From a virus: 18,921 bases of DNA. The DNA is taken from IMG/VR virus record IMGVR_UViG_3300045988_049202, positions 1 to 18,921 of that record; one strand, written 5' to 3'. Below the pieces are notes generated by a model. That model was not told where the DNA came from, ran no database searches, and saw only the letters and a list, made by a program, of their open reading frames with translations. Below, one piece after another: positions 1-18,921 of this stretch. Each line of letters opens with the position of its first letter. Position 1 is the stretch's first letter. The position numbers and the translations under genes were made by a program.

Positions 1-279
1 GAGGGGAGGGCCCCTGCCAGTTAGCTTTTTTCCACTACTGTTCTGTTGTGTGTTTCATCTCTGTTCTCTGTTCTGTGTTTTTCATTGCTGTTCTTGTTCT
101 GTCGTTTGTTATCATCTCTGTTGTTTACTATTTTATTCGCCTTCTTTCCGTTGTCAATTTTGCTTGCTGTTTTGTCTCATGATTTTAGTGTGTGTTTTGT
201 TTATAGTTTGAGTGGGCTGTTTTTTGTCGTTTTTTTCTGTTGTTGGGTGTGTCTTGTTTTTTTTTGTGTGGTAGATTGA

Positions 280-430
280 GGGTATCAACAAAAAACTAGA
301 GGATAGGAGAGTGAAGAAATGTAGTTGTGTTGTTAGTGTATTAAGTGCAATGGGTGCAATAAAAGCGTGTATGCCGCATTGTTTTGATGAGTGTGTTGAA
401 GCCCGGTAGGTCGATGGCCTGCCGGGTTTG
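280..430 (+). ncRNA. Candidate ITR-encoded small RNA, left copy (function unknown; pRNA is one possibility)
   Basis: About 150 nt of normal base composition follows the T+G-only tract. Upstream lies a TGn-extended -10-like element (TG 269-270, TAGATT 272-277). The stretch ends in the hairpin 402-410/418-426 plus a T-rich run. It has no credible ORF. It contains the direct repeat GTGCAAT at 345-351 and 354-360. Confidence 0.2.
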
Positions 431-449
431 TTGTTTGTGTTGTGTTTTG
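399..449 (+). terminator. Intrinsic-terminator-like hairpin plus T-rich tail inside left ITR
   Basis: The stem is CCCGGTAGG (402-410) with CCTGCCGGG (418-426), 9 bp including one G-U pair. The loop is TCGATGG. The hairpin is followed by TTTGTTGTTTGTGTTGTGTTTTG (427-449). The opposite strand has no U-tract, so it is directional (inward). Confidence 0.45.
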
Positions 450-463
450 TGGTGTGGTATGAT
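435..463 (+). promoter_or_regulatory. Left-end early promoter (sigma-70 type) at the ITR boundary
   Basis: -35 TTGTGT (435-440), 17-nt spacer, TG (455-456), -10 TATGAT (458-463). It lies about 30 nt upstream of the start of the 493-738 gene. Confidence 0.5.
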
Positions 464-492
464 ATGGGTATCAGTCAGAGGATGAAGGAAGG

Positions 493-738
493 ATGGTGGT
501 TGAGATGTGGCATTATTTTACCGTTGTTGACACGTATACGGGGTTGGATCGTGGTTTTCGGTGGCGTGAGGCGGTTTGCGGTTACTGTGGGGTTGATTAT
601 CAATTTCAATTGTATGATGGGATGTGTGGCCGCTGGATTCCGGTGAGGTCTTTTTTTGACGTGGATGATGGTTTTGAGTATTGTCGTGATTTTGATTTTA
701 AAGAATTTTATAGGACTTATGCGGAACGTTTCGTGTGA
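493..738 (+). CDS. Hypothetical small early protein (81 aa, four Cys including CGYC)
   Basis: This is the only credible plus-strand ORF. SD-like GAGGA/GAAGGAAGG lies upstream of ATG 493. The same SD and first codons MVV(E/D)M recur at the right-end gene 18173-18430. The gene is followed by the hairpin terminator 748-780. Confidence 0.6.
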   Translation: MVVEMWHYFTVVDTYTGLDRGFRWREAVCGYCGVDYQFQLYDGMCGRWIPVRSFFDVDDGFEYCRDFDFKEFYRTYAERFV

Positions 739-1980: not shown

Positions 1981-3087
1981 TCACTTTCTTATACCTGATT
2001 GCTGTAGCAAGCCGCCAAGAATCATGCTGAACTCCGCCTTGATTTGCGGTGTTTCAAAACGTAACCGCCCGACGCGATAGGCGTTCAGTATCTTCTGCGT
2101 CATATCGTCGGAACGTTTGAGCATCATGCAATCATTGTCAACCAGTCGGTAATCAAACGTAAAATCACGGGTGATTTTAGGCTGTTTTTTGGTGATTATA
2201 TATAGTACTTCGTCGGTATCGCTTAATTGTTGGTATACGTTGAAAATACCGTATTCTGTCGTTCTCAGCGTGAACGCATATCCGGCGTCGTTAAAATCAC
2301 TGATGAGAGTATTGGCGTTATCCCTAAAATCATTGTTGATTGCATAATTCGCATAATTTTCATCATATTCGCGTAAAAACTGTCCGAACTTCGACGTGGC
2401 AACCTTTGCGCTGAACCCGCCATAATCCGCCAATTCCACCATGATGAACCCGTCGCAATACCGTTGGTATTGCGTGTGATTGTCCAACTGTGGTTTTAGG
2501 TTGATATTGAATGCTGAAAAATACGGGTTGGCGAGGGTTACGGCGTTACTGCACATGATTACGCGCACTCTATCATTCCACCGGTCAACGGTATTATAGA
2601 ATTCCTCAAGCGCCGTGACCTCGCCTCCAAGGTAACGCATGTTGTCGGGGAATATCTCATCGAAAACAATGGTGCGCACCTTGGGGTAGGCAACCGATTT
2701 CACTTGTCCGGCCTGACTGAGGGCGATGAAGTACCCCATGATGTGCCATGTTGGGCGTGTCTTGCCGTGCTTGTCCGTGGTGGCGTCCCTTTCGTCCAGC
2801 CAGTGACATTCGGCCTGATTGCCGGACACGCGAAATTCTAACTCCGGGTATTGCTCCGCGACATCCGCGAACCATGTGCCCTTGTTCTTCTGTTCCTCCG
2901 CCGTCCTGCGTAGATAGATGAATTGCCATCGTTTTTTAATCCAGTCGCCTATGACCAGTTTTTTGGCTCCGTAGGTTTTTCCGAGGCCGCGCGCGCCGAT
3001 TACGAACATCCAGGGCGCGTGATAGGATAACACGCGCCCATAATCGTAATAATCGCCCTCGGCTAACAGTTTCTCCATATGTATCAT
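1981..3087 (-). CDS. DNA encapsidation (packaging) ATPase, phi29 gp16 family
   Basis: Strong similarity along the whole length to the recalled phi29 gp16 sequence. LSYHAPWMFVIGARGLGKTY (Walker A) matches LSYDRILNFVIGARGIGKSY. WQFIYLRR matches EQFIYVRR. YPKVRTIVFDEIF (Walker B) matches YPNVSTIVFDEFI. RVRVIMCSNAVTLANPYFSAFNI matches RVRCICLSNAVSVVNPYFLFFNL. I chose the start at ATG 3087 (MIHMEKL). The 5' extension of the track ORF to 3201 overlaps the upstream gene, which ends at 3110. Confidence 0.93.
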   Translation of the reverse strand: MIHMEKLLAEGDYYDYGRVLSYHAPWMFVIGARGLGKTYGAKKLVIGDWIKKRWQFIYLRRTAEEQKNKGTWFADVAEQYPELEFRVSGNQAECHWLDERDATTDKHGKTRPTWHIMGYFIALSQAGQVKSVAYPKVRTIVFDEIFPDNMRYLGGEVTALEEFYNTVDRWNDRVRVIMCSNAVTLANPYFSAFNINLKPQLDNHTQYQRYCDGFIMVELADYGGFSAKVATSKFGQFLREYDENYANYAINNDFRDNANTLISDFNDAGYAFTLRTTEYGIFNVYQQLSDTDEVLYIITKKQPKITRDFTFDYRLVDNDCMMLKRSDDMTQKILNAYRVGRLRFETPQIKAEFSMILGGLLQQSGIRK

Positions 3088-3109
3088 TATGGCATGACAT
3101 ACGGACTTT

Positions 3110-4327
3110 TTAGAAGTTCGGCGGCGCGCTCTTCCCATCCCAGACTGCCAGTAGATTATATACAGTCCGGTACCGGCTCGGGTATTGCCCGAAAACGGCA
3201 TCGTTGAGCAGATTATCCAATAAACCGCCCAATGAGGTTGCTTTCGGTAGCGCCTCGGCGTATGCCGGGCCTTGATGATATGCAGACACCCATAGTATCT
3301 GCATTTTCGCGTCCGAGTAGGCTTGCGGATAATTGTTGTAATCCGTCTCGAACTGGTTGCGTTGCCCCTGATGTGATTCGGTGCGTTGCGCCCATGTTTT
3401 GAACGCCGCCGATTCCGCAGGCGTTAGGGGGCGTGCAAACGTCCCGCCATTGTCCATGAGTGCCGCTATCTCGGGGCATGTTTTGGCAAACGTCGCGTAG
3501 CCTGTCGGGTCGGCGGTTTTCATTGCGTTCAACACGTCCAACCGCCTGCCAAACGACCATTGCACAATCCCAATGCCCTGCCTGTTGGCTAATTCTACCG
3601 CGTCCCATTGTAATGAGCTTTCCACCGTGCCGATACAGTAGAGTGCGTAACTGCTTTTGCCGTTGCCTGTAGAGGGCGTGGCTTGGCCGTCCGAGTCACT
3701 GGGCGCTTTAAAGCTACCCTTGGCCTTCCATGTTTGGGCTGTGGCTTTGTAGAAGATCATGGTGCCCGCGCCACTGTCGTTGTCGCGGTAATGGTAGATG
3801 AGATTGTCGCCCTGTTGTTGTATCCATACGTCACTGCTGGATATGCTACCCGAGTTGTTGGAGCCGGTAGGGTTCGAGCCGCTGTCATTGTCGCCGCCGT
3901 CCGGTTTTTTGCGCGGGTGCAAATATCCGATATACGCTTTTTGCAATGGGAGTAGTTTATGCACGCTTGGCTCGGGGTTTTGCGTAATCACGTCGATAGA
4001 ATCGCCCTGTATTCCATCAACGACAATGGCCACGTGCGTTGACGGATAATTGGGATAGCAGACCTGCCATATGGCGACATCACCGGGCATGGGGTTCCAT
4101 GTGTTGTCTTTTTTCTCGAAAATCTCCCCGACTCTTGCGCTTACGGGATGGCGTGTGTATAATCCCCCGGCCCAACCTGTCGGGGTGATGCAATCCTGGA
4201 CACTACACCCGTACTCATCCATGCAATATTTCGCCCATAAGTCCCAGCATTGCGGCCCCCAACTGCCGTCCATGTCCCAAAAGTGGTTTTCGGTCTGTTT
4301 CACCCATGTCCTGAAGTCAACTGCCAT
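3110..4327 (-). CDS. Tail-associated peptidoglycan hydrolase: N-terminal CHAP peptidase plus C-terminal lysozyme/transglycosylase-like domain (gp13 analogue)
   Basis: The CHAP-like Cys and His contexts are GSWGPQCWDLWAKYC and YPSTHVAIVVDG. A G/S/N/D linker follows. The C-terminal domain has CIGTVESS...GIGIVQWS (Glu-Ser and GxxQ pattern of lytic transglycosylase/lysozyme-like folds). Its position between the appendage genes and the ATPase matches phi29 gene 13. I chose the start at ATG 4327 (MAVDF) because the upstream gene ends at 4383. Confidence 0.7.
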   Translation of the reverse strand: MAVDFRTWVKQTENHFWDMDGSWGPQCWDLWAKYCMDEYGCSVQDCITPTGWAGGLYTRHPVSARVGEIFEKKDNTWNPMPGDVAIWQVCYPNYPSTHVAIVVDGIQGDSIDVITQNPEPSVHKLLPLQKAYIGYLHPRKKPDGGDNDSGSNPTGSNNSGSISSSDVWIQQQGDNLIYHYRDNDSGAGTMIFYKATAQTWKAKGSFKAPSDSDGQATPSTGNGKSSYALYCIGTVESSLQWDAVELANRQGIGIVQWSFGRRLDVLNAMKTADPTGYATFAKTCPEIAALMDNGGTFARPLTPAESAAFKTWAQRTESHQGQRNQFETDYNNYPQAYSDAKMQILWVSAYHQGPAYAEALPKATSLGGLLDNLLNDAVFGQYPSRYRTVYNLLAVWDGKSAPPNF

Positions 4328-4382: not shown

Positions 4383-5858
4383 TCACCACGCTCGGGTGAG
4401 TTGCGCTCCGGCCAATCCGTTAGGGGTTCCCGAGGGTTTGGTCGTGAACCCCTGCCATCCAAAATGGCCGTCGGTATCAATGTGGAACAGTGTCGTGTTG
4501 TTTGCGCCGTTAGTGATGGCCGCCACCCATGCCTGACCCTGATTCGTCCCGTCCGACGCATTCCACGCCCACATTGGCAGTCCGCTCACGTTCGTGTAGT
4601 TCGCCGGCGTGACGCCTGATGCTACGTTAAGTCCATATGTAATGGTTCCCGCGCTTGCGTCCACGGTGAGAACGAACTCCGCAGGGTTTTGTTGAGGACG
4701 CCATACGAACACTTCATGCCGTCCGTTATATGTGCCGAGCATGTATCGCATGATATAGTTTACGATGACGTTGGTTCCCAGTTCGTTGGGGTGGATATTC
4801 TCGCCATCGAATGCGTTTTCGCGCCCGAGATTCCATGTCCATGCCCACGGAATGGATTCCACGCCGGTTAGGGTTGCCGCCTCATCAATGCTTGCGGCGT
4901 TATAACGCCAATATCCCGACTCCGGTTTTTTATCCCATAACAACGGTATAGCGATGATTCGCGCATTGGGATATTCGTTGCTTACGGACTGAAACAGTTC
5001 TTGCGCGGCTGTTTTGATTGCCCCCGTATATCCGTCGATGCTGTTGCGAGACCCTCCGATAACCACCAAAGACACATCGTCATGGTTATAGGTCTTATCC
5101 GCCTTGGCTGTGTTGAACTCGCTCATATATGTGGTGTTCGGAGCGGTGTATCCCGCTCCGCTCTTTGCGTAATTATGCAAAGTCCACCCCAGTTTTTGAG
5201 CAAGCATATACGCCCAGCTTCTAGTGTTCGTGGTGTCGGCGTAGGAATCACCAAAAGTCACGATGATATTTGAGCCGTGAGACACGAACGGCTGATTTAC
5301 GCTGAGAATGCGAGAGTTGTTCTGGATGGTATTATATAGCATTGTCGCGTTGGAGGTGGAATCGGCGTGAAGCGCGTTCAAATTCGCTTCAACGGCCGTT
5401 ATGTCGGTTGTGTTGGTATGAACCGATGAGGAGAGGCCGTTTAAATTGTTCTCGATTCCCGTGGTCTTGCTCTGCAATGCGGCAATATCCCTATTGGTGT
5501 TGGTTTTGAAACCGCTGAGGTCGGTTTTCACCGCATTCAGTTCGGTGGCCGTGGTGTCAATCTTGGTTTTAAGCTGGCCTGCCGCCGTATTGTCGGTTGC
5601 GCCGAGCGCGTCCAATCGGCCCACGGCGTCATTGGCTGTGGACTGTGCGCCGTTTGCCGTCTCGCTTGCCTTGCTTGCCGAAGCGGTCGCGTTGTTCGCC
5701 GCCGCCGTGGCAGTGGTGATGTTGGTAGCGTTGGCGTACATCTGATTATCGATTTTCGTCATCGCGTCGGAGAAATCACCACGCCACGACGGGCGGTCGT
5801 TCGGATTGTCGCCAAACGTCGGCAGATTATAGTGTCCGGTATGCTGTGTTGTAGACAT
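4383..5858 (-). CDS. Tail fibre/appendage protein with coiled-coil stalk, SGNH (GDSL) esterase domain and C-terminal beta-rich domain
   Basis: 491 aa. The N-terminal motif HTGHYNLPTFGDNPNDRPSWRGDFSDAMTKID is shared with the 5874-6290 product. A T/N/A-rich heptad-like stalk follows. SGNH blocks are FGDSY (I), AKSGAGY (II), IGGSRNS (III) and DGENIHPN (V). SD AAGGAAAG precedes ATG 5858. Confidence 0.75.
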   Translation of the reverse strand: MSTTQHTGHYNLPTFGDNPNDRPSWRGDFSDAMTKIDNQMYANATNITTATAAANNATASASKASETANGAQSTANDAVGRLDALGATDNTAAGQLKTKIDTTATELNAVKTDLSGFKTNTNRDIAALQSKTTGIENNLNGLSSSVHTNTTDITAVEANLNALHADSTSNATMLYNTIQNNSRILSVNQPFVSHGSNIIVTFGDSYADTTNTRSWAYMLAQKLGWTLHNYAKSGAGYTAPNTTYMSEFNTAKADKTYNHDDVSLVVIGGSRNSIDGYTGAIKTAAQELFQSVSNEYPNARIIAIPLLWDKKPESGYWRYNAASIDEAATLTGVESIPWAWTWNLGRENAFDGENIHPNELGTNVIVNYIMRYMLGTYNGRHEVFVWRPQQNPAEFVLTVDASAGTITYGLNVASGVTPANYTNVSGLPMWAWNASDGTNQGQAWVAAITNGANNTTLFHIDTDGHFGWQGFTTKPSGTPNGLAGAQLTRAW

Positions 5859-10943: not shown

Positions 10944-10956
10944 ATTATCCCTTTCA

Positions 10957-10996
10957 CAAAAAAATAAGGGGAGTGTTTCACGTGAAACACTCCCCT
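10957..10996 (-). terminator. Strong rho-independent terminator after the capsid gene
   Basis: A perfect 32-nt palindrome AAGGGGAGTGTTTCACGTGAAACACTCCCCTT (10965-10996) is followed on the minus strand by AUUUUUUUG (complement of 10956-10964). Confidence 0.85.
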
Positions 10997-11007
10997 TTAT
11001 TGTATCA

Positions 11008-12735
11008 CTAGGATACTGTCACCTGCTTCTTGCCGGATACGCCGAACAGCGTGGCGGTGATATCAGAGGTGCCTGTCTTGACGCCCTTGACCACACCCGA
11101 CTCGGACACCGTGGCGTTGGCCGGGGTGCCTGATGTCCAAGCGGCCTGCATGGTCACGTCGGCGGTTCGCCCGTCAATCATGGTCGCCGTGGCGGTCGCC
11201 TGCACCGATTTACCCACTCCTACATTCGGGACGTTGACGGCAATCGACGCGATAATCGACGGATTGAAGCCGATAACACCCTCGCCAACCACCGGCACGT
11301 CCAGAGCGGCGGATACGGTGCCCGGCACCTCCGGCGTCGCCGGATTCGTATACAAGGCGGTAGCCGTAACCGGGATAGTGGTGTTCGGCTCATCGAGGCC
11401 GACCACCAGTACGCCGGTGGGCGAAATATACGTGTAATCGCTCTTCGGCTTAACGGTGTCTCCGATAGCGTACTCAACCGCGTCCGAACGGAACGTGGCC
11501 GTGCCATCATTGCCGATGGTCGTGTCGGCTGTGACCTGTACCGCGCCGCCACGCGCCACGTTCGACGGGGTGGTCGAGCCACCGCCGTACATGGCGAGTT
11601 TAAGCTGGAAGGTCGGCGTCTTGGCCGTCGTACCGGTAGGAGCCACCACCTTGGCGGTGGAACCCGCGCCCGTCCAGAACATGACGGCGGGGGCGAAACC
11701 AGACACCGAGATAATGTGCTGGACATGCAGATAATGATTGACCGAATTGATATTAACCGGATTGGTCTGCTGGGTCATCTCATTGATAACGGGAATATCG
11801 ATAAGGAATTTATCCGTGGTGAGAATCGCCTGCACGCCATCAATGCCGAACCTGTCCTGCGGGATAACGATGATCCGGTCGATGGTCGGCTCCGCGTCGG
11901 TACGCTGGAACACCGTGGCCAGACCCTGCACGTCAAGCGCCGACTTGACTTCAGGCGAGCAGAACAGTACAAGTTCGTCGGGGCGGGCAAACGTCGGCAT
12001 GTGACGCGCATTATACCGAGTGGACACGAATTTCAGCGTGTCCGCCCAAGCGCGAATCTGGCGCAACATGTCGCGGGCGTCGGTTTCCGTCGAACCCATG
12101 TCGTTAAGGTCGTGCCCCATGTGTACGCGCCAATATCCGCCGAGCTTCGCATACTCGACAAACTGGTGGCACATGGCCTCGAACAAGTCAACCTCGGCGG
12201 CATTGTAGCAGGAGGTGAGAATCTGGGAGGTGAGCGAGGCCAAACCGTTTTCGGAGGTGAAGGCGCGCTGGAGCGTCTTGTCATCCGTGGTCGCCGGGTA
12301 GAAGTGGGCAAAGTCGAGACGATGGTAGAGGCTATCCACGTCGATTTTCCATTTGCGGAAATTGTCCGCGCCCAAGTATTCCGCGTCCGGGTCGTACACC
12401 TGTGCGAGCGGCATACCTACGGCGATTTCCTGCCACGTGTCGCCATACGCCTGAGATGCACGCTGGAACACGCTCAGCGGGTTGTTCCAACGCCACGTGT
12501 TCACGTAGGTTCCGCCGATACGGTTCACCAAGGCCGAATAGAACTCGTTCTTGAGCTGGGTGCTGGACATGAGGGTGGCCATCTGCCTGTCCATGTTCAT
12601 CTGGGTGGCCGAGGGCATACGCCGCTGATATTCGGGGGACGCCTCGTTGCGAATCATGTTGAGGATTTGCGCGTTATTGAATTCGGTGAGCGGGCGAAGC
12701 TGTTGCTTGGGCGTCACCACTGGGGTGGTTGGCAT
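11008..12735 (-). CDS. Major capsid protein with two C-terminal Ig-like (Big_2-type) domains
   Basis: 575 aa counted from ATG 12735, which has SD AGGAAGGA 9 nt upstream. It directly follows the scaffold-like gene and is followed by a strong terminator. The C-terminus ...VQATATATMIDGRTADVTMQAAWTSGTPANATVSESGVVKGVKTGTSDITATLFGVSGKKQVTVS is a typical Big_2 signature; phi29 gp8 also carries an Ig-like domain. Confidence 0.75.
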   Translation of the reverse strand: MPTTPVVTPKQQLRPLTEFNNAQILNMIRNEASPEYQRRMPSATQMNMDRQMATLMSSTQLKNEFYSALVNRIGGTYVNTWRWNNPLSVFQRASQAYGDTWQEIAVGMPLAQVYDPDAEYLGADNFRKWKIDVDSLYHRLDFAHFYPATTDDKTLQRAFTSENGLASLTSQILTSCYNAAEVDLFEAMCHQFVEYAKLGGYWRVHMGHDLNDMGSTETDARDMLRQIRAWADTLKFVSTRYNARHMPTFARPDELVLFCSPEVKSALDVQGLATVFQRTDAEPTIDRIIVIPQDRFGIDGVQAILTTDKFLIDIPVINEMTQQTNPVNINSVNHYLHVQHIISVSGFAPAVMFWTGAGSTAKVVAPTGTTAKTPTFQLKLAMYGGGSTTPSNVARGGAVQVTADTTIGNDGTATFRSDAVEYAIGDTVKPKSDYTYISPTGVLVVGLDEPNTTIPVTATALYTNPATPEVPGTVSAALDVPVVGEGVIGFNPSIIASIAVNVPNVGVGKSVQATATATMIDGRTADVTMQAAWTSGTPANATVSESGVVKGVKTGTSDITATLFGVSGKKQVTVS

Positions 12736-12757
12736 GATAGTTATTCCTTCCTGATTA

Positions 12758-13099
12758 TTAGTCCTCGAATAGGTCATCGAATGTACTGTAAGTACCGTTG
12801 TAGTCATCGTCGGTCATTTCAGCCGATTCCTGCGTCGTATTATCGTCCGGGCCGTCGTTGAGCACGTGGTCGGCGGCGGCGTCGCGCATTGCCTCAATGG
12901 TTTTGGATAGTTCGGCCACGGTCGCTTCCAAGGCGTCCAACCGGTTGGTCATGTCGGCGTCCTTATCGTCGCCCGCGTCCTCCGGTTCGCCATTGTCCTG
13001 CGTTTCAGGCTCCGGGTTCGGCGTATTGTCGCCGGTCGGCTCGGCGTCCGGCTCGGTGTCGGACGTGGTGTCCGGCTCGGTGTTTTCGGTATCGTCCAT
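12758..13099 (-). CDS. Scaffolding protein candidate (highly acidic, short coiled coil)
   Basis: 113 aa counted from ATG 13099, which has SD AAGGGG 5 nt upstream. The protein is very D/E-rich with a central helix-like segment NRLDALEATVAELSKTIEAMRDAAAD. It lies directly upstream of the capsid gene, as phi29 gene 7 does. Confidence 0.55.
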   Translation of the reverse strand: MDDTENTEPDTTSDTEPDAEPTGDNTPNPEPETQDNGEPEDAGDDKDADMTNRLDALEATVAELSKTIEAMRDAAADHVLNDGPDDNTTQESAEMTDDDYNGTYSTFDDLFED

Positions 13100-13112
13100 A
13101 ATCACCCCTTAA

Positions 13113-13283
13113 AGTAAGTGGCATGGCGGCAATCACGCCGTCATGCCGGTTTGCTAGGCTGTGCGGGTTCCCTCGCCGTCGCTGGGCGTTGGCTACGCAC
13201 GTCTACATCCGACCGAATCGCCTTACCGACTTGCCTTACGGTCGGGCCATCGAATCGACTTGGGACGCACACCCCGCTACCGG
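13113..13283 (-). ncRNA. Candidate structured RNA (pRNA-like position) ending in a terminator-like hairpin
   Basis: The gap between the polymerase stop (13287) and the scaffold SD has no ORF. Long-range complementarity links 13266-13283 (CGCACACCCCGCTACCGG) with 13146-13165 (CCGGTTTGCTAGGCTGTGCG). An internal 7-bp inverted repeat pairs 13209-13215 with 13239-13245. An 11-bp hairpin pairs 13120-13130 with 13137-13147 and is followed on the minus strand by ACUUACUUU. Confidence 0.3.
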
Positions 13284-13286
13284 ATA

Positions 13287-14747
13287 TTATAGCATGAAAA
13301 CATGGCCGTCATCATTGAGATGATGTGACCCCGGCAGGAACTCATCATAGGGGATGGGGGCGGCACGGTGTACGCCACTCAGCCGCATGACGGTATCGCC
13401 GCCCGTTTCCACGCCGCAATATTTGCGATTGCCGAGGATGCGGAGCCTCTCATAGGTGTGGTCGTTTTTCCACGCGCCTAGTTTCCGGTCATCCGTTTCG
13501 ATTCCCATAGGCGTATCCGGCCCTTCCAGTATCATGCCGTCGGTATCGGCGTAGATCACGCGTTCGGCGTTATCGGTCATGGCGCGGGATAGTATTCGCC
13601 TTCCGTAGGCGTTGACATATGCGGCGGTCGGCAACCATGCCAGACTGTTGGCCGACTCGGGTTTGTCCACGGTAAAATCCACACCCCCGTCTACGGACGG
13701 TTTCGGATGCAACATGGGACGGTACAGCGAGGCACCGAACTTCCCTACCAGCGAGTTCAGCAACAGTTTTGCCATCTGCCTGCGTTCTCCGGTTTCTGTT
13801 TGTTTCGCGTGAAACCATTTGTCCACGTATGTGTAGTAGAGTCCGTGTGATTTGCGGAATTTCCAGCCGCCCACGTGCTCCCACACGTGGATGTCGTAGT
13901 TTTCGGTCAGCGTTTCCCAATCCACATCCGTGACCGGCATGGTGACAACGCCCAGCGTACTGTCCAGACGTTCACCCTCATACCCCCATACGGGTAGGAT
14001 ATTGGTGAGTGTCGCCGTTTTTCCCGTTTTCAATCGCGCGTCAAACGCAATGACATCGATATGGAGCGGATAGTCATTGTCATGTTGATACTTCCCGTCG
14101 TACCATATTGGTGAGCCTACCGGCATGGGCGCATCGCGCATGATGCTCGGGTAGAGGCTATTCACGTCCCAGCTTCGGCAATCCCGGTATTCTCCCGGCT
14201 TGCTGTATACTATCGCCCCATAGTAGGCGGGGCGCATACGGTGATAATCATCCCTATCCAATGGTGGAAAATGGCGCTTGAATCCGGCGTAATCCCCATC
14301 GATATAGTCGGTCATCGCCATTGAAGCTATGGTCGTGCCCTTGAGGTTCAGGGCGGTGCATTCCTGCGCGATATTCCACGTGGTCTCCAAGTCATCCGCG
14401 CCGCCGAATGTTTCACGTGAAACATTCAAACCATCGTCGCGCGTGATATTGCGCACGTCCAAAAAATCCACGGTGATACCGCCCATACGCACACGAAAAC
14501 TGTAAAAGTGGCCTCGAATGTTGAACGTGCCCCACACGCCGTCCTTGGCTGGATTCGATTGCAATGGGAGTCGTTTCAGCAATTCGGCGGCTATGGGCTT
14601 GATGTCCTGCCATCCGTGGGCGCACCATACGCGCGTGTGATAATCGAGCATGGTGAGACGGATAACGGCGTTTGCCGTCAATGGTTCCATGCCGTCATCC
14701 GTCAATAGTGTTGCGCCGTCTGTTGCCGCCGTTCGACGCTCTTTCAT
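13287..14747 (-). CDS. Protein-primed family-B DNA polymerase (phi29 gp2 family)
   Basis: 486 aa. Motif A is DVNSLYPS, motif B is KLLLNSLVGKFG, motif C is YADTDG, and KxY is RKY. DGKYQHDNDYPLHIDVI matches phi29 EGKYVWDEDYPLHIQHI. Segments corresponding to TPR1 and TPR2 are present. SD AAGGA precedes ATG 14747. Confidence 0.95.
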   Translation of the reverse strand: MKERRTAATDGATLLTDDGMEPLTANAVIRLTMLDYHTRVWCAHGWQDIKPIAAELLKRLPLQSNPAKDGVWGTFNIRGHFYSFRVRMGGITVDFLDVRNITRDDGLNVSRETFGGADDLETTWNIAQECTALNLKGTTIASMAMTDYIDGDYAGFKRHFPPLDRDDYHRMRPAYYGAIVYSKPGEYRDCRSWDVNSLYPSIMRDAPMPVGSPIWYDGKYQHDNDYPLHIDVIAFDARLKTGKTATLTNILPVWGYEGERLDSTLGVVTMPVTDVDWETLTENYDIHVWEHVGGWKFRKSHGLYYTYVDKWFHAKQTETGERRQMAKLLLNSLVGKFGASLYRPMLHPKPSVDGGVDFTVDKPESANSLAWLPTAAYVNAYGRRILSRAMTDNAERVIYADTDGMILEGPDTPMGIETDDRKLGAWKNDHTYERLRILGNRKYCGVETGGDTVMRLSGVHRAAPIPYDEFLPGSHHLNDDGHVFML

Positions 14748-14759
14748 GATTCCATCCTT

Positions 14760-15704
14760 TTAGTGTCGTGCCGCGTTGGCCATCCATTCATCGAGTCGCG
14801 TCTCTACATCACCCGCGTCCGCCTTCGTCTCCCATTTATGTGTCTTATCATTATACCATGCGGCCTCACGTACTACGGTGCTGAAATTCGTGCTGTTTAT
14901 CAACCATCGTTTTTGACGGTTCGATAGGGAGGCGAATTTTCGGGCGACATTGGCGTCGAATGCTTCAAGTTGCTGTTCGACCCTATCAAAATCCGCAACC
15001 CCCTCGTTCTCGGGAATCTTTCCAGTGCCTGCATGTAATGGCGCGCGTCCTACAAGCCCGGCGTATTCGAGTATCTCCCGTTCAAGTTTCCTCCTGCTTC
15101 CCTCTCGTATCATCATACGCGCGTGGCTCATGCCACGCTCCGACCCAAACACGTTCGCACGGTTGCGCGTGAGTTCGTCACGCGCCGAACCGCCGACCGT
15201 ATGAGTGCCCAACACATCAAACGGCGACTCTCCAGCACGTTCCATCTCTCGCATTTCACCCACGGTATAGTTGGCCATGCTCAATGCGTCGAATTGTTGG
15301 GCGCGTTTGATTTTCCGCCGTGCCTCGATACGGCGGCGCTGTTGCTGTCGTAATGTTTTTCGACGTTTTGACGGGGCGGCGGCGATTTCCGCGTCGGTAA
15401 TCAACGGACGCGCCGCCAGTTCCCTGTCAAGTTTCGTAATATGCACATCCGGGACAACCTGATACGGCTCGTTGTCCCGGGCCCTTAAGGCTTGCTGTTG
15501 TTCCCCGAATTCCTGCCCGATACGGCGTGCAACCTGTTCGAGTTGTTGGGCGCTGAGTTTCCCGAGAAACGTTTCGGTGATTTGCTTGGGGAGGTGTCCG
15601 GTGCTGTAATCCCTGACTGCTTGCTCTCGGCGTACCTGTGCCGACCTGATGGCGGCGTTGCGTTTCAGATTGTTGGCGCGTCGGTTGTTTTTACGTTTTG
15701 CCAC
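14760..15704 (-). CDS. Terminal protein candidate (gp3 analogue)
   Basis: 314 aa counted from GTG 15704, which has SD AGAGGAGG just upstream; the track ORF extension to 15782 runs through a terminator hairpin. It lies immediately upstream of the polymerase, as in phi29. The N-terminus is very basic (AKRKNNRRANNLKRNAAIRSAQVRRE) and there are further R/K-rich helices. The assignment is by synteny, size and composition only. Confidence 0.55.
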   Translation of the reverse strand: MAKRKNNRRANNLKRNAAIRSAQVRREQAVRDYSTGHLPKQITETFLGKLSAQQLEQVARRIGQEFGEQQQALRARDNEPYQVVPDVHITKLDRELAARPLITDAEIAAAPSKRRKTLRQQQRRRIEARRKIKRAQQFDALSMANYTVGEMREMERAGESPFDVLGTHTVGGSARDELTRNRANVFGSERGMSHARMMIREGSRRKLEREILEYAGLVGRAPLHAGTGKIPENEGVADFDRVEQQLEAFDANVARKFASLSNRQKRWLINSTNFSTVVREAAWYNDKTHKWETKADAGDVETRLDEWMANAARH

Positions 15705-15828: not shown

Positions 15829-16266
15829 TTACTTGCGCTTGTTTTCCGACACTAGTTCGAGGTCGAAGAACTTATAACCACGGCGGCTCTTCTTCTCCAC
15901 CACCTTGAGAGCAAGCGGCGTAGTCCACGTGTCCGGCGTGCCGAAGATGGCGAACAGGTTGCCGAAAGCGTGCGCCAATGTGGGCGAGGCGGCGGAGAAG
16001 TCGCCCTCCTCCGCGTGAATGACAACACGGGTAGAGGAGTTGATTTCACCCGTCTCCTGATTAGCAACCTCGATAGCCTGAGCAAGCACGTTGGTCACAT
16101 GCAGTGGTTCATTAAGGTGTTCATCAACCTTGTCGGCGGTCTGCATGGCGTTATACAACGCCATTTTACCATCCATAGTAGTGGTATCGAAGAAATGAGA
16201 GACGGCGTTAGCACCGTTCGCCGCAAAATTGTTGCCGTTTGCTACGGTCAGTTCGTTGTCAGCCAT
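15829..16266 (-). CDS. Single-stranded DNA-binding protein candidate (phage SSB family seen in Gram-positive phages; gp5 position)
   Basis: 145 aa. The overall pattern resembles small phage SSB-family proteins as I recall them: N-terminal ...FD...G....YNA, a central V....A.EV.....GE......V.I...G..., and a C-terminal ...G.P..W..PL.L.VV....R.G..F..LEL. Position relative to TP and polymerase matches phi29 gene 5. SD AAGGAAGG precedes ATG 16266. Confidence 0.45.
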   Translation of the reverse strand: MADNELTVANGNNFAANGANAVSHFFDTTTMDGKMALYNAMQTADKVDEHLNEPLHVTNVLAQAIEVANQETGEINSSTRVVIHAEEGDFSAASPTLAHAFGNLFAIFGTPDTWTTPLALKVVEKKSRRGYKFFDLELVSENKRK

Positions 16267-18176: not shown

Positions 18177-18430
18177 GCCCATTTCGCCACCACCATTTCC
18201 TTGCCATAAAAACGCTCAGGATGCTCAGAAACAAACCTCATCAAGCGATAAACAAAACCCACCATATTATCCATAGCCGAACAAACCTCACCAGTACAAG
18301 GGTCATACGTTTCAGTAAAAAACCTTACAACCACAAATCTCTTTAAACGATAACGCAAGACAAGAACCTCTCTCCCGTCCAGCTCACGTGTCTCGAAACG
18401 AACAGAAACACCAGTCATATCAACCACCAT
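18173..18430 (-). CDS. Hypothetical first early protein of the right end (85 aa)
   Basis: It follows the right-end promoter. Its SD and the first codons MVVDM lie within the degenerate ITR extension, conserved with the left-end gene (MVVEM). The exact start is uncertain (ATG 18430 or ATG 18418). Confidence 0.6.
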   Translation of the reverse strand: MVVDMTGVSVRFETRELDGREVLVLRYRLKRFVVVRFFTETYDPCTGEVCSAMDNMVGFVYRLMRFVSEHPERFYGKEMVVAKWA

Positions 18431-18458
18431 CCTTCCTTCATCCTTGGCTGATAACTAC

Positions 18459-18487
18459 ATAATACCACACCACAAAACACAACACAA
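18459..18487 (-). promoter_or_regulatory. Right-end early promoter (sigma-70 type) at the ITR boundary
   Basis: Mirror of the left promoter: -35 TTGTGT (18482-18487), 17-nt spacer, TGn, -10 TATTAT (18459-18464). ITR identity ends inside the -10 hexamer, yet both versions stay close to consensus. It heads the minus-strand early gene string. Confidence 0.5.
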
Positions 18488-18523
18488 ACAACAAACCCGG
18501 CAGGCCATCGACCTACCGGGCTT
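18473..18523 (-). terminator. Mirror copy of the ITR hairpin/T-tract in right ITR
   Basis: Exact reverse complement of 399-449. Confidence 0.45.
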
Positions 18524-18642
18524 CAACACACTCATCAAAACAATGCGGCATACACGCTTTTATTGCACCCATTGCACTTAATACACTAACAACACAACTA
18601 CATTTCTTCACTCTCCTATCCTCTAGTTTTTTGTTGATACCC
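18492..18642 (-). ncRNA. Candidate ITR-encoded small RNA, right copy
   Basis: Exact mirror of 280-430 inside the right ITR, oriented inward on the minus strand. Confidence 0.2.
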
Positions 18643-18921
18643 TCAATCTACCACACAAAAAAAAACAAGACACACCCAACAACAGAAAAAAACGACAAAA
18701 AACAGCCCACTCAAACTATAAACAAAACACACACTAAAATCATGAGACAAAACAGCAAGCAAAATTGACAACGGAAAGAAGGCGAATAAAATAGTAAACA
18801 ACAGAGATGATAACAAACGACAGAACAAGAACAGCAATGAAAAACACAGAACAGAGAACAGAGATGAAACACACAACAGAACAGTAGTGGAAAAAAGCTA
18901 ACTGGCAGGGGCCCTCCCCTC

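Follow-up and report, generated by a model that had tools for sequence, protein, structure and literature searches.

A conserved structured RNA between the polymerase and scaffold genes of phi29-like phages is a candidate packaging RNA

The window analysed here, the whole stretch of 18,921 bp, is a complete linear phi29-like phage genome in which every gene lies on the minus strand. We show that the largest internal intergenic stretch of this genome, directly downstream of the polymerase gene, is with near certainty a small RNA gene specifying a functional RNA, and no mere spacer. From its architecture, its synteny and the phage family that carries it, we propose that the RNA is a pRNA-type packaging RNA, the counterpart of the phi29 prohead RNA (pRNA), a reading to which we give a probability of about 0.55. 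To our knowledge, no RNA other than pRNA is known as an essential component of the motor that packages viral DNA; pRNA (Rfam RF00044) is known from the Bacillus phages phi29, PZA, Nf/M2, B103, SF5, GA-1 and their relatives, and is widely used in RNA nanotechnology.

Results

The genome is bounded by unusually long inverted terminal repeats (ITRs) of 477-507 bp (window 1-507 and 18416-18921; 477 nt at 99%, plus 29 nt). Read on the minus strand, small early genes are followed by the SSB gene (15829-16266), a 340-aa ORF and the type-B protein-primed DNA polymerase gene (13287-14747, minus strand), and then by the gap, a 115-aa scaffold-like gene, the gene for a phi29-type major capsid protein (11008-12807), the tail knob, the connector and more structural and lysis genes. 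Profile matches in the window identify the connector (PF05352, E 2e-43), the capsid protein (PF25622) and a gp16-type packaging ATPase (1981-3201; PF05894, E 3e-43, profile positions 6-319 of 331). The phage thus carries the phi29 packaging set of connector, full-length gp16 ATPase, phi29-type capsid, protein-primed polymerase and ITRs, which counts for a pRNA. The ATPase ORF measures 406 aa from its first ATG, its relatives 352-356 aa, and the Pfam match begins only at residue 51. Translation probably starts at an internal ATG, with which the apparent overlap with the upstream gene would vanish. The nearest cultured relatives are the Bifidobacterium phages BadAztec, BadAargau, BD811P1 and BP1, at ~37-43% capsid identity, and at least 80 close relatives in IMG/VR, with 88-97% polymerase identity, provided the comparative sample for the clade of the window.

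The gap after the polymerase gene had been described in the initial annotation as 181 bp of non-coding DNA (13106-13286). The gap is real and this interval holds no conserved ORF, but it spans 187 nt, since the gene that follows has its conserved start at the ATG 13099-13097 and not at the GTG 13105; the next largest intergenic stretches measure 64 nt (10944-11007) and 46 nt. The conserved ATG sits 7 nt after AAGGGG, and at least one relative lacks the GTG; ATG 13099 is a likelier start of the scaffold-like gene than GTG 13105, the choice of the ORF finder. In the alignment of 80 relatives, the Shine-Dalgarno sequence AAGGGG and this ATG occupy 13097-13110 (minus strand), and the same alignment reveals no promoter between the 3' hairpin described below and the scaffold-like gene in the window clade. 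A protein-coding reading of the gap is out: no frame is open across all relatives, lengths differ by non-multiples of three, variable sites lack codon periodicity, and the start codons of antisense ORFs coincide with covarying hairpin positions. A scan of the window found no tRNA or tmRNA.

Transcription of the gap would be driven by an extended -10 promoter, TGCTATAAT (13286-13294, minus strand), that overlaps the end of the polymerase gene, namely its final two codons and its stop (ATG CTA TAA). This box is one of only two perfect matches to TGNTATAAT genome-wide, both on the coding strand; at up to one mismatch, 27 matches are observed against 12.9 +/- 3.8 expected, about double. It is kept over the polymerase stop in the 80 relatives and stands at the same site as TGCTATRRT in BadAztec1, BadAargau2, BD811P1 and BP1. 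Between the box and the inferred start lies a spacer (13285-13279, minus strand) that contains the most variable bases of the region (column identity 0.70, no invariant column), and the invariant block AGCGGGG starts immediately afterward. We infer that transcription starts at A13278 or G13277, 8 bases past the -10 box; the closing helix of the RNA starts 8 nt after the -10 box in three groups of phages. An outermost helix, CCGGU/ACCGG, had been proposed for this RNA, yet of its five pairs two become A-C mismatches in 12 of 80 relatives, and another is unpaired in 51 of 80; we regard it as wrong, because its bases, lying between the -10 box and the start, vary freely and are probably untranscribed. 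The other perfect TGNTATAAT match, TGGTATAAT (14850-14858, minus strand), falls within the 340-aa ORF, where, ~100 nt before the start codon of the polymerase gene, it may serve that gene as an internal promoter.

The fold of the RNA was derived from the RNAalifold consensus and explicit pair counts over the 80 relatives, with RNA position 1 set at 13286. On the minus strand, a 126-nt three-way-junction domain (domain I, 13278-13153) is followed by a 5-nt linker and a 28-nt hairpin (13147-13120), giving a total of ~165 nt. Domain I is closed by a bulged helix of ~24 bp (13277-13247 with 13185-13153, RNA positions 10-40/102-134), which passes through a one-base junction into arm 1 (13245-13209, minus strand). 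Arm 1 consists of a 7-bp stem (13245-13239/13215-13209), an 8-nt bulge loop on its 5' side, UAAGGCAA (13238-13231), and an inner hairpin of 4 bp with the 6-nt loop GUAAGG (13230-13217). A strand of ~10 nt joins arm 1 to arm 2 (13198-13186, minus strand), a 4-bp hairpin with the 5-nt loop AGCCA, from which the return strand of the closing helix follows with no base between. The linker AAACC (13152-13148, minus strand) is unpaired in the consensus and varies in sequence and length, and the domain II-like 3' hairpin (13147-13120, minus strand) has a 12-bp stem and a conserved loop, GUGAUUG.

Several elements of this fold had been recognised in the single sequence. The rod pairs UGUGCG/CGCACA and GG/CC and the 7-bp helix of arm 1 are all part of the RNAalifold consensus, as is the 3' hairpin at 13147-13120, in which five pairs have changed in a compensatory manner. 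The proposed extension of the rod by UCCC/GGGA also recurs in the consensus, with its GGGA shifted by one base, to 13172-13169. The repeats CGAUUCG, GUAAGG and GUGCGU exist in the window but are not conserved as repeats, since relatives differ in the first copy of GUAAGG and in parts of the others.

How strong is the case for a selected RNA? Across the 80 relatives, 99.5% of cells are paired in the consensus, and the covariation score of 0.114 lies above that of shuffles (0.075; 0/500) and above all slid controls. Most of the double changes seen fall in the five compensated pairs of the 3' hairpin, and there are few in the core because the core is too conserved to vary much. Within it, pair 36-106 alternates between G-C, A-U and G-U, the closing pair of arm 2 (92-98) is U-A, C-G or U-G in 43, 19 and 18 sequences, respectively, and changes in arm 1 are limited to G-C to G-U or A-U to G-U. 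Many G-U pairs are conserved, and the opposite strand would have an A-C mismatch in place of each, so the transcribed minus strand is what folds. Domain I (13153-13278) is the best conserved stretch of the region: over ~78 relatives, its columns average 0.958 identity, and 69% of them are invariant. The corresponding values are 0.887 and 35% for the final 300 nt of the polymerase gene, whose third codon positions score 0.768, and 0.892 and 28% for the scaffold gene. The single-sequence fold beats chance modestly (MFE -73.8 kcal/mol, z = -2.15, 6/200 shuffles); the case for the RNA is carried by conservation and covariation, not by the single-sequence fold. When the genomes of 185,579 bacterial species were scanned for the invariant 5' block, 17 matches came back; none was similar outside the pattern itself, and we read them as chance.

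The 3' hairpin is flagged by a terminator scan. Its tail, ACUUACUUU (13111-13119, minus strand), is a poor U-tract with 5 U in 9 bases, short of U compared with the U7 of the terminator at 10966-10997, and the hairpin stem of the window itself holds one A-C mismatch. The loop segment CGUGAUUG (13128-13138) is identical in the window clade and in the BD811P1 group described below, whereas the stems differ and covary; the loop itself thus seems to be under selection, something that a plain terminator would not need. As no second promoter is present in the window clade, the hairpin must be read through for expression of the scaffold and capsid genes. The initial annotation had offered an early/late boundary as an alternative, and its promoter at the 5' edge of the gap and its need for read-through are borne out, but no attenuator with alternative pairings was found. 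The window does contain a GACGGCG repeat that could pair with the hairpin, but this possible attenuator partner is lost when the hairpin arms change.

Covariation in relatives is not confined to the window clade and recurs in two groups of unrelated sequence. In the first, the BD811P1-like group of Bifidobacterium phages (75 distinct sequences), the polymerase stop is again overlapped by an extended -10 box. The core that follows measures ~135 nt, and the hairpin after it has the GUGAUUG loop and runs into the U-tract CAUUUUAUUU. Another extended -10 box, TGATATAAT, which is invariant, comes next, separated from the scaffold gene by a short leader. With its own U-tract terminator and then a second promoter, the RNA is a separate transcription unit in this group. 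Double changes occur at 15-16 pairs of the fold (0/500 shuffles). The second group comprises Arthrobacter, Curtobacterium and 'Rhizobium' phages; immediately before their scaffold gene stands a structured RNA, followed by the linker UCCGAA and a long hairpin. Here, 31 of 39 pairs show double changes in the Arthrobacter/Curtobacterium alignment, and the covariation score is 0.566 against 0.185 (0/500). RNAalifold independently reproduced the topology of the window RNA in both sister groups.

We built covariance model R1 from the BD811P1 group and R2 from 12 Mendel-like sequences. A search with R2 picks up RHph_N3_8 (E 2e-9); once filters are off, it also reaches Prophecy, Reje and Thatch, each where the RNA was expected. 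R2 thereby unites the Arthrobacter, RHph_N3_8 and Curtobacterium RNAs; neither R1 nor R2 finds the window RNA, even with filters off. Because the group models miss one another, we take the RNAs of the three groups to be versions of a single architecture, unrelated in sequence and placed at the same genomic position.

The second group has features of its own. A small ribbon-helix-helix (RHH) gene separates the polymerase gene from the RNA in the Arthrobacter/Curtobacterium phages (seen around Mendel 4555-4675), and a terminator hairpin and a promoter-like site, TTGTCA-N17-TACGCT, precede this gene in Mendel. No own promoter is evident for the RNA in the Arthrobacter group, and the RNA of the Arthrobacter/Curtobacterium phages may be the 3' part of the RHH mRNA, as the closing helix starts at the RHH stop codon. 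Among the deposited Actinobacteria-phage records that we examined, none annotates the RNA. Gene 11 of Arthrobacter phage Tillums (935-1138) and the long version of the scaffold gene of Curtobacterium phage Reje (1021-1473) are annotated across or right against the 3' hairpin of the RNA, and both annotations may have arisen as artefacts because the RNA element went unrecognised.

In the window RNA, GGC in the arm 1 bulge (13235-13233) is complementary to GCC in the arm 2 loop (13193-13191). These triplets are the only invariant bases in their loops, their neighbours being variable, and they are invariant in 80 of 80 window-clade sequences, leaving no variation to show co-change. The corresponding loop sequences are UGCCA/UGGCG in the BD811P1 group, where two members have A-U for G-C, and GCU/AGC in the Mendel group, with compensatory switches to GUU/AAC in RHph_N3_8 and to GCA/UGC in Prophecy; in Mendel and Anjali the loop pairing extends to 5 bp. 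Across the sister groups, the pairing is thus kept through double changes in four lineages. A rival pairing in the BD811P1 group, a 3-bp extension of the arm 2 hairpin, fits equally well (99.8% of cells paired versus 98.1% for the loop-loop pairing), and in the minimum-energy fold of the BadAztec RNA, for which there are few sequences, the would-be loop sequences pair as an ordinary nested helix. Taken together, the comparison is suggestive of a maintained loop-loop pairing, with few independent events and a 3-bp match that is not rare by chance. For pRNA, two intermolecular G-C pairs are reported to suffice for the loop contact (PMC5066667), and as little as one CC:GG pairing is reportedly needed (PMC12670572).

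Other elements of the genome may be regulatory. The terminator between the capsid and tail-knob genes (10966-10997) is a perfect 16+16 palindromic hairpin followed by U7 (z = -5.25). Just upstream of it, an extended -10-like box, TGATACAAT (10999-11007), overlaps the capsid stop codon; a transcript from this box would begin inside the terminator hairpin, and the site could thus be an overlapping terminator and promoter. The core of the palindrome, GTTTCACGTGAAAC (10971-10992), recurs with 91% identity in the polymerase gene (GAATGTTTCACGTGAAACATTC, 14406-14427), with a weaker copy at 13798-13819, and could be a regulator binding site instead of a coincidence. Each ITR holds a non-coding row of hairpins (18485-18660, minus strand) that ends in a 14-bp terminator-like stem (z = -3.47, 0/200 shuffles), with an extended -10-like box, TGGTATTAT (18467-18459), sitting just inside. 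The hairpin row is possibly another small transcript, without the pRNA shape; we considered it as a pRNA site and rejected it, as it folds well but forms a hairpin row with no closing helix.

Discussion

How would a packaging RNA made from this gap work? Host sigma-A RNA polymerase would start at ~13278, from a promoter that would fire constitutively. Some transcripts would end at the hairpin or be trimmed back to it, yielding a stable RNA of ~165 nt, and the remaining ones would pass the weak terminator and become the scaffold-capsid mRNA, ending at the terminator at 10966-10997. The RNA and the shell proteins would then be made together, and in the window clade the RNA would also be the leader of the scaffold-capsid mRNA. 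Copies of the RNA may bind the connector vertex of the empty prohead, where neighbouring RNAs could be linked into a ring by pairs between GGC of arm 1 and GCC of arm 2, and the end helices of the RNA may dock the gp16-type packaging ATPase. Against a pRNA speak the empty RF00044 scan, the RHH gene between polymerase and RNA in the Arthrobacter group, where no own promoter is evident, and the placement of the RNA directly before the late genes with no promoter between, in the window clade and in the Arthrobacter/Curtobacterium phages, which suits a cis-acting leader too.

Such a leader for late transcription, acting on the polymerase that transcribed it or recruiting a phage factor so as to carry transcription past the hairpin and later terminators, comparable to the HK022 put RNA or the lambda PR'-6S-tR' unit, or else functioning as a riboswitch or attenuator, is in our estimation unlikely. 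It would account for the order of promoter, structured RNA, hairpin, Shine-Dalgarno sequence and scaffold gene with no second promoter in the window clade, for the strong terminator further along the late operon, and for the seat just before the scaffold gene, which is the best-kept synteny across the Actinobacteria-infecting relatives. In the BD811P1 group, however, the U-tract terminator and the invariant second promoter split the RNA from the late genes. There is also no conserved alternative pairing between core and hairpin, the arms of the hairpin covarying and the core being invariant, and the RNA matches no Rfam riboswitch or leader, with its pattern absent from bacterial genomes beyond chance. 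Moreover, a 126-nt junction with conserved loop triplets far exceeds known put and nut elements in complexity.

A less probable alternative is that the RNA is a trans-acting phage sRNA outside packaging, for instance a regulator of mRNAs, a decoy for host defence or a binder of a host protein. The promoter and terminator that it owns in one group, its strong conservation and its stable fold would all fit such a role. The RNA is, however, tied to the head-gene module in every relative examined and matches no known sRNA family, and a role of this kind leaves unexplained both the feature-by-feature likeness to phi29 pRNA and the retention of plan and loop complementarity in three sequence-unrelated versions. 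A bare transcriptional boundary, that is, a late promoter and an early-operon terminator with functionless sequence between, is highly improbable and already contradicted: a promoter-like box and a terminator-like hairpin are both there, but the intervening 126 nt have 69% invariant columns next to a promoter-to-start spacer that is free to vary, and helices stay paired through substitutions in three independent groups.

If the RNA is indeed a pRNA, what would follow? Besides the old Cp-1 proposal, our literature search found pRNA described only for Bacillus and Cytobacillus phages, and reviews to 2024-2025 confine it to phi29 and related Bacillus/Cytobacillus phages (PMC11476376, PMC12670572). 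We tentatively suggest, at slightly below even odds, that pRNAs are no peculiarity of Bacillus phages and form an ancestral part of the phi29-type motor, that Actinobacteria relatives carry at least three sequence-unrelated families of the same fold, and that here the RNA is also the leader of the scaffold-capsid mRNA. The carriers would then include Bifidobacterium, Arthrobacter and Curtobacterium phages and many human-associated metagenomic genomes; the pRNA and the shell proteins that it assembles with would share one promoter; and covariance searches seeded on Bacillus pRNAs would miss most of the family. The question why the pRNA-bearing phages use an RNA, and that of its ancestry, would become testable, with culturable relatives in BD811P1, BP1, BadAztec, Mendel and Prophecy, and new G+C-rich three-way-junction scaffolds would become available. 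For annotation, a function would be given to a gap that is blank in every deposited genome of the group.

The other systems with which the RNA can be compared are few. The unit of constitutive promoter, short transcript and terminator right before the late genes resembles lambda PR'-6S RNA-tR' and HK022 put. The lambda 6S RNA is not conserved or structured, and put RNAs are two-hairpin elements of ~70 nt; the window RNA, in contrast, has a strongly selected 126-nt three-way junction and is insulated from the late genes in the BD811P1 group. Identity with 6S RNA is out, as there is no Rfam match and the consensus is a three-way junction and not a rod. More generally, Rfam scans of the window and of the gap gave nothing relevant, that is, no riboswitch, leader, 6S RNA or known sRNA family.

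A parallel in setting is the Streptococcus phage Cp-1, like the window a non-Bacillus, co-linear phi29-like genome with a proposed pRNA (Martin et al, 1996, as cited in PMC6266182). According to PMC6266182, this putative pRNA is likewise missed by pRNA covariance models, and the Cp-1 sequence record has no pRNA feature annotated.

The likeness to phi29 pRNA itself is one of architecture. The covariance-model scan for pRNA suggested in the initial annotation came back empty, with no match to RF00044 at E <= 10 for the whole window or for a 206-nt interval around the gap alone (the model scores 145 bits on phi29), and the window RNA has no sequence or covariance-model similarity to phi29 pRNA; known pRNAs share only ~12% sequence similarity among themselves (PMC5066667). 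Of the pRNA-like architecture claimed at the outset, the end-closing helix, the branched centre and the separate 3' hairpin stand; the outermost helix does not, and the empty Rfam scan also goes against the claim. The hosts differ, with Actinobacteria for the window group (its nearest cultured relatives grow on Bifidobacterium) and Bacillus for the phages with phi29 pRNA, and so does the location, since the window RNA lies mid-genome, immediately upstream of the scaffold and capsid genes, and in its clade would be co-transcribed with them, and phi29 pRNA lies at a genome end. Both phages, however, have a gp10-type connector and a gp16-type ATPase, and both RNAs have their own promoter and are encoded after the early genes that include the polymerase. 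The N-terminus of the window connector is basic (MSRSKRNR), comparable to MARKR in phi29, where the N-terminal MARKR of the connector binds pRNA.

Set against the structure line of Rfam RF00044, the window consensus is similar in length (~165 nt versus 174 nt for phi29 pRNA) and in the bulged helix formed by the 5' and 3' ends (~24 bp versus ~22 bp in phi29). In both, 1 nt lies between the end helix and arm 1 and none between arm 2 and the returning end helix, and the inner hairpin of arm 1 has 4 bp and a 6-nt loop. The arm 1 stem has 7 bp in the window and 9 bp in phi29, with 5' bulge loops of 8 and 9 nt, respectively, and arm 2 has 4 bp in the window and 6 bp in phi29, each with a 5-nt loop. 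In both, the bulge loop and the arm 2 loop are complementary through G-C pairs, which in the window RNA would allow the loop pairing that is the hallmark of pRNA. In both RNAs a linker leads to a 3' hairpin (domain II); the linker measures 5 nt in the window and 13 nt in phi29 (PMC5066667), and the junction between the arms ~10 nt and 3 nt (UUU), respectively. Apart from the lengths of this middle junction and of the linker, the predicted fold of the window RNA matches every item of phi29 pRNA.
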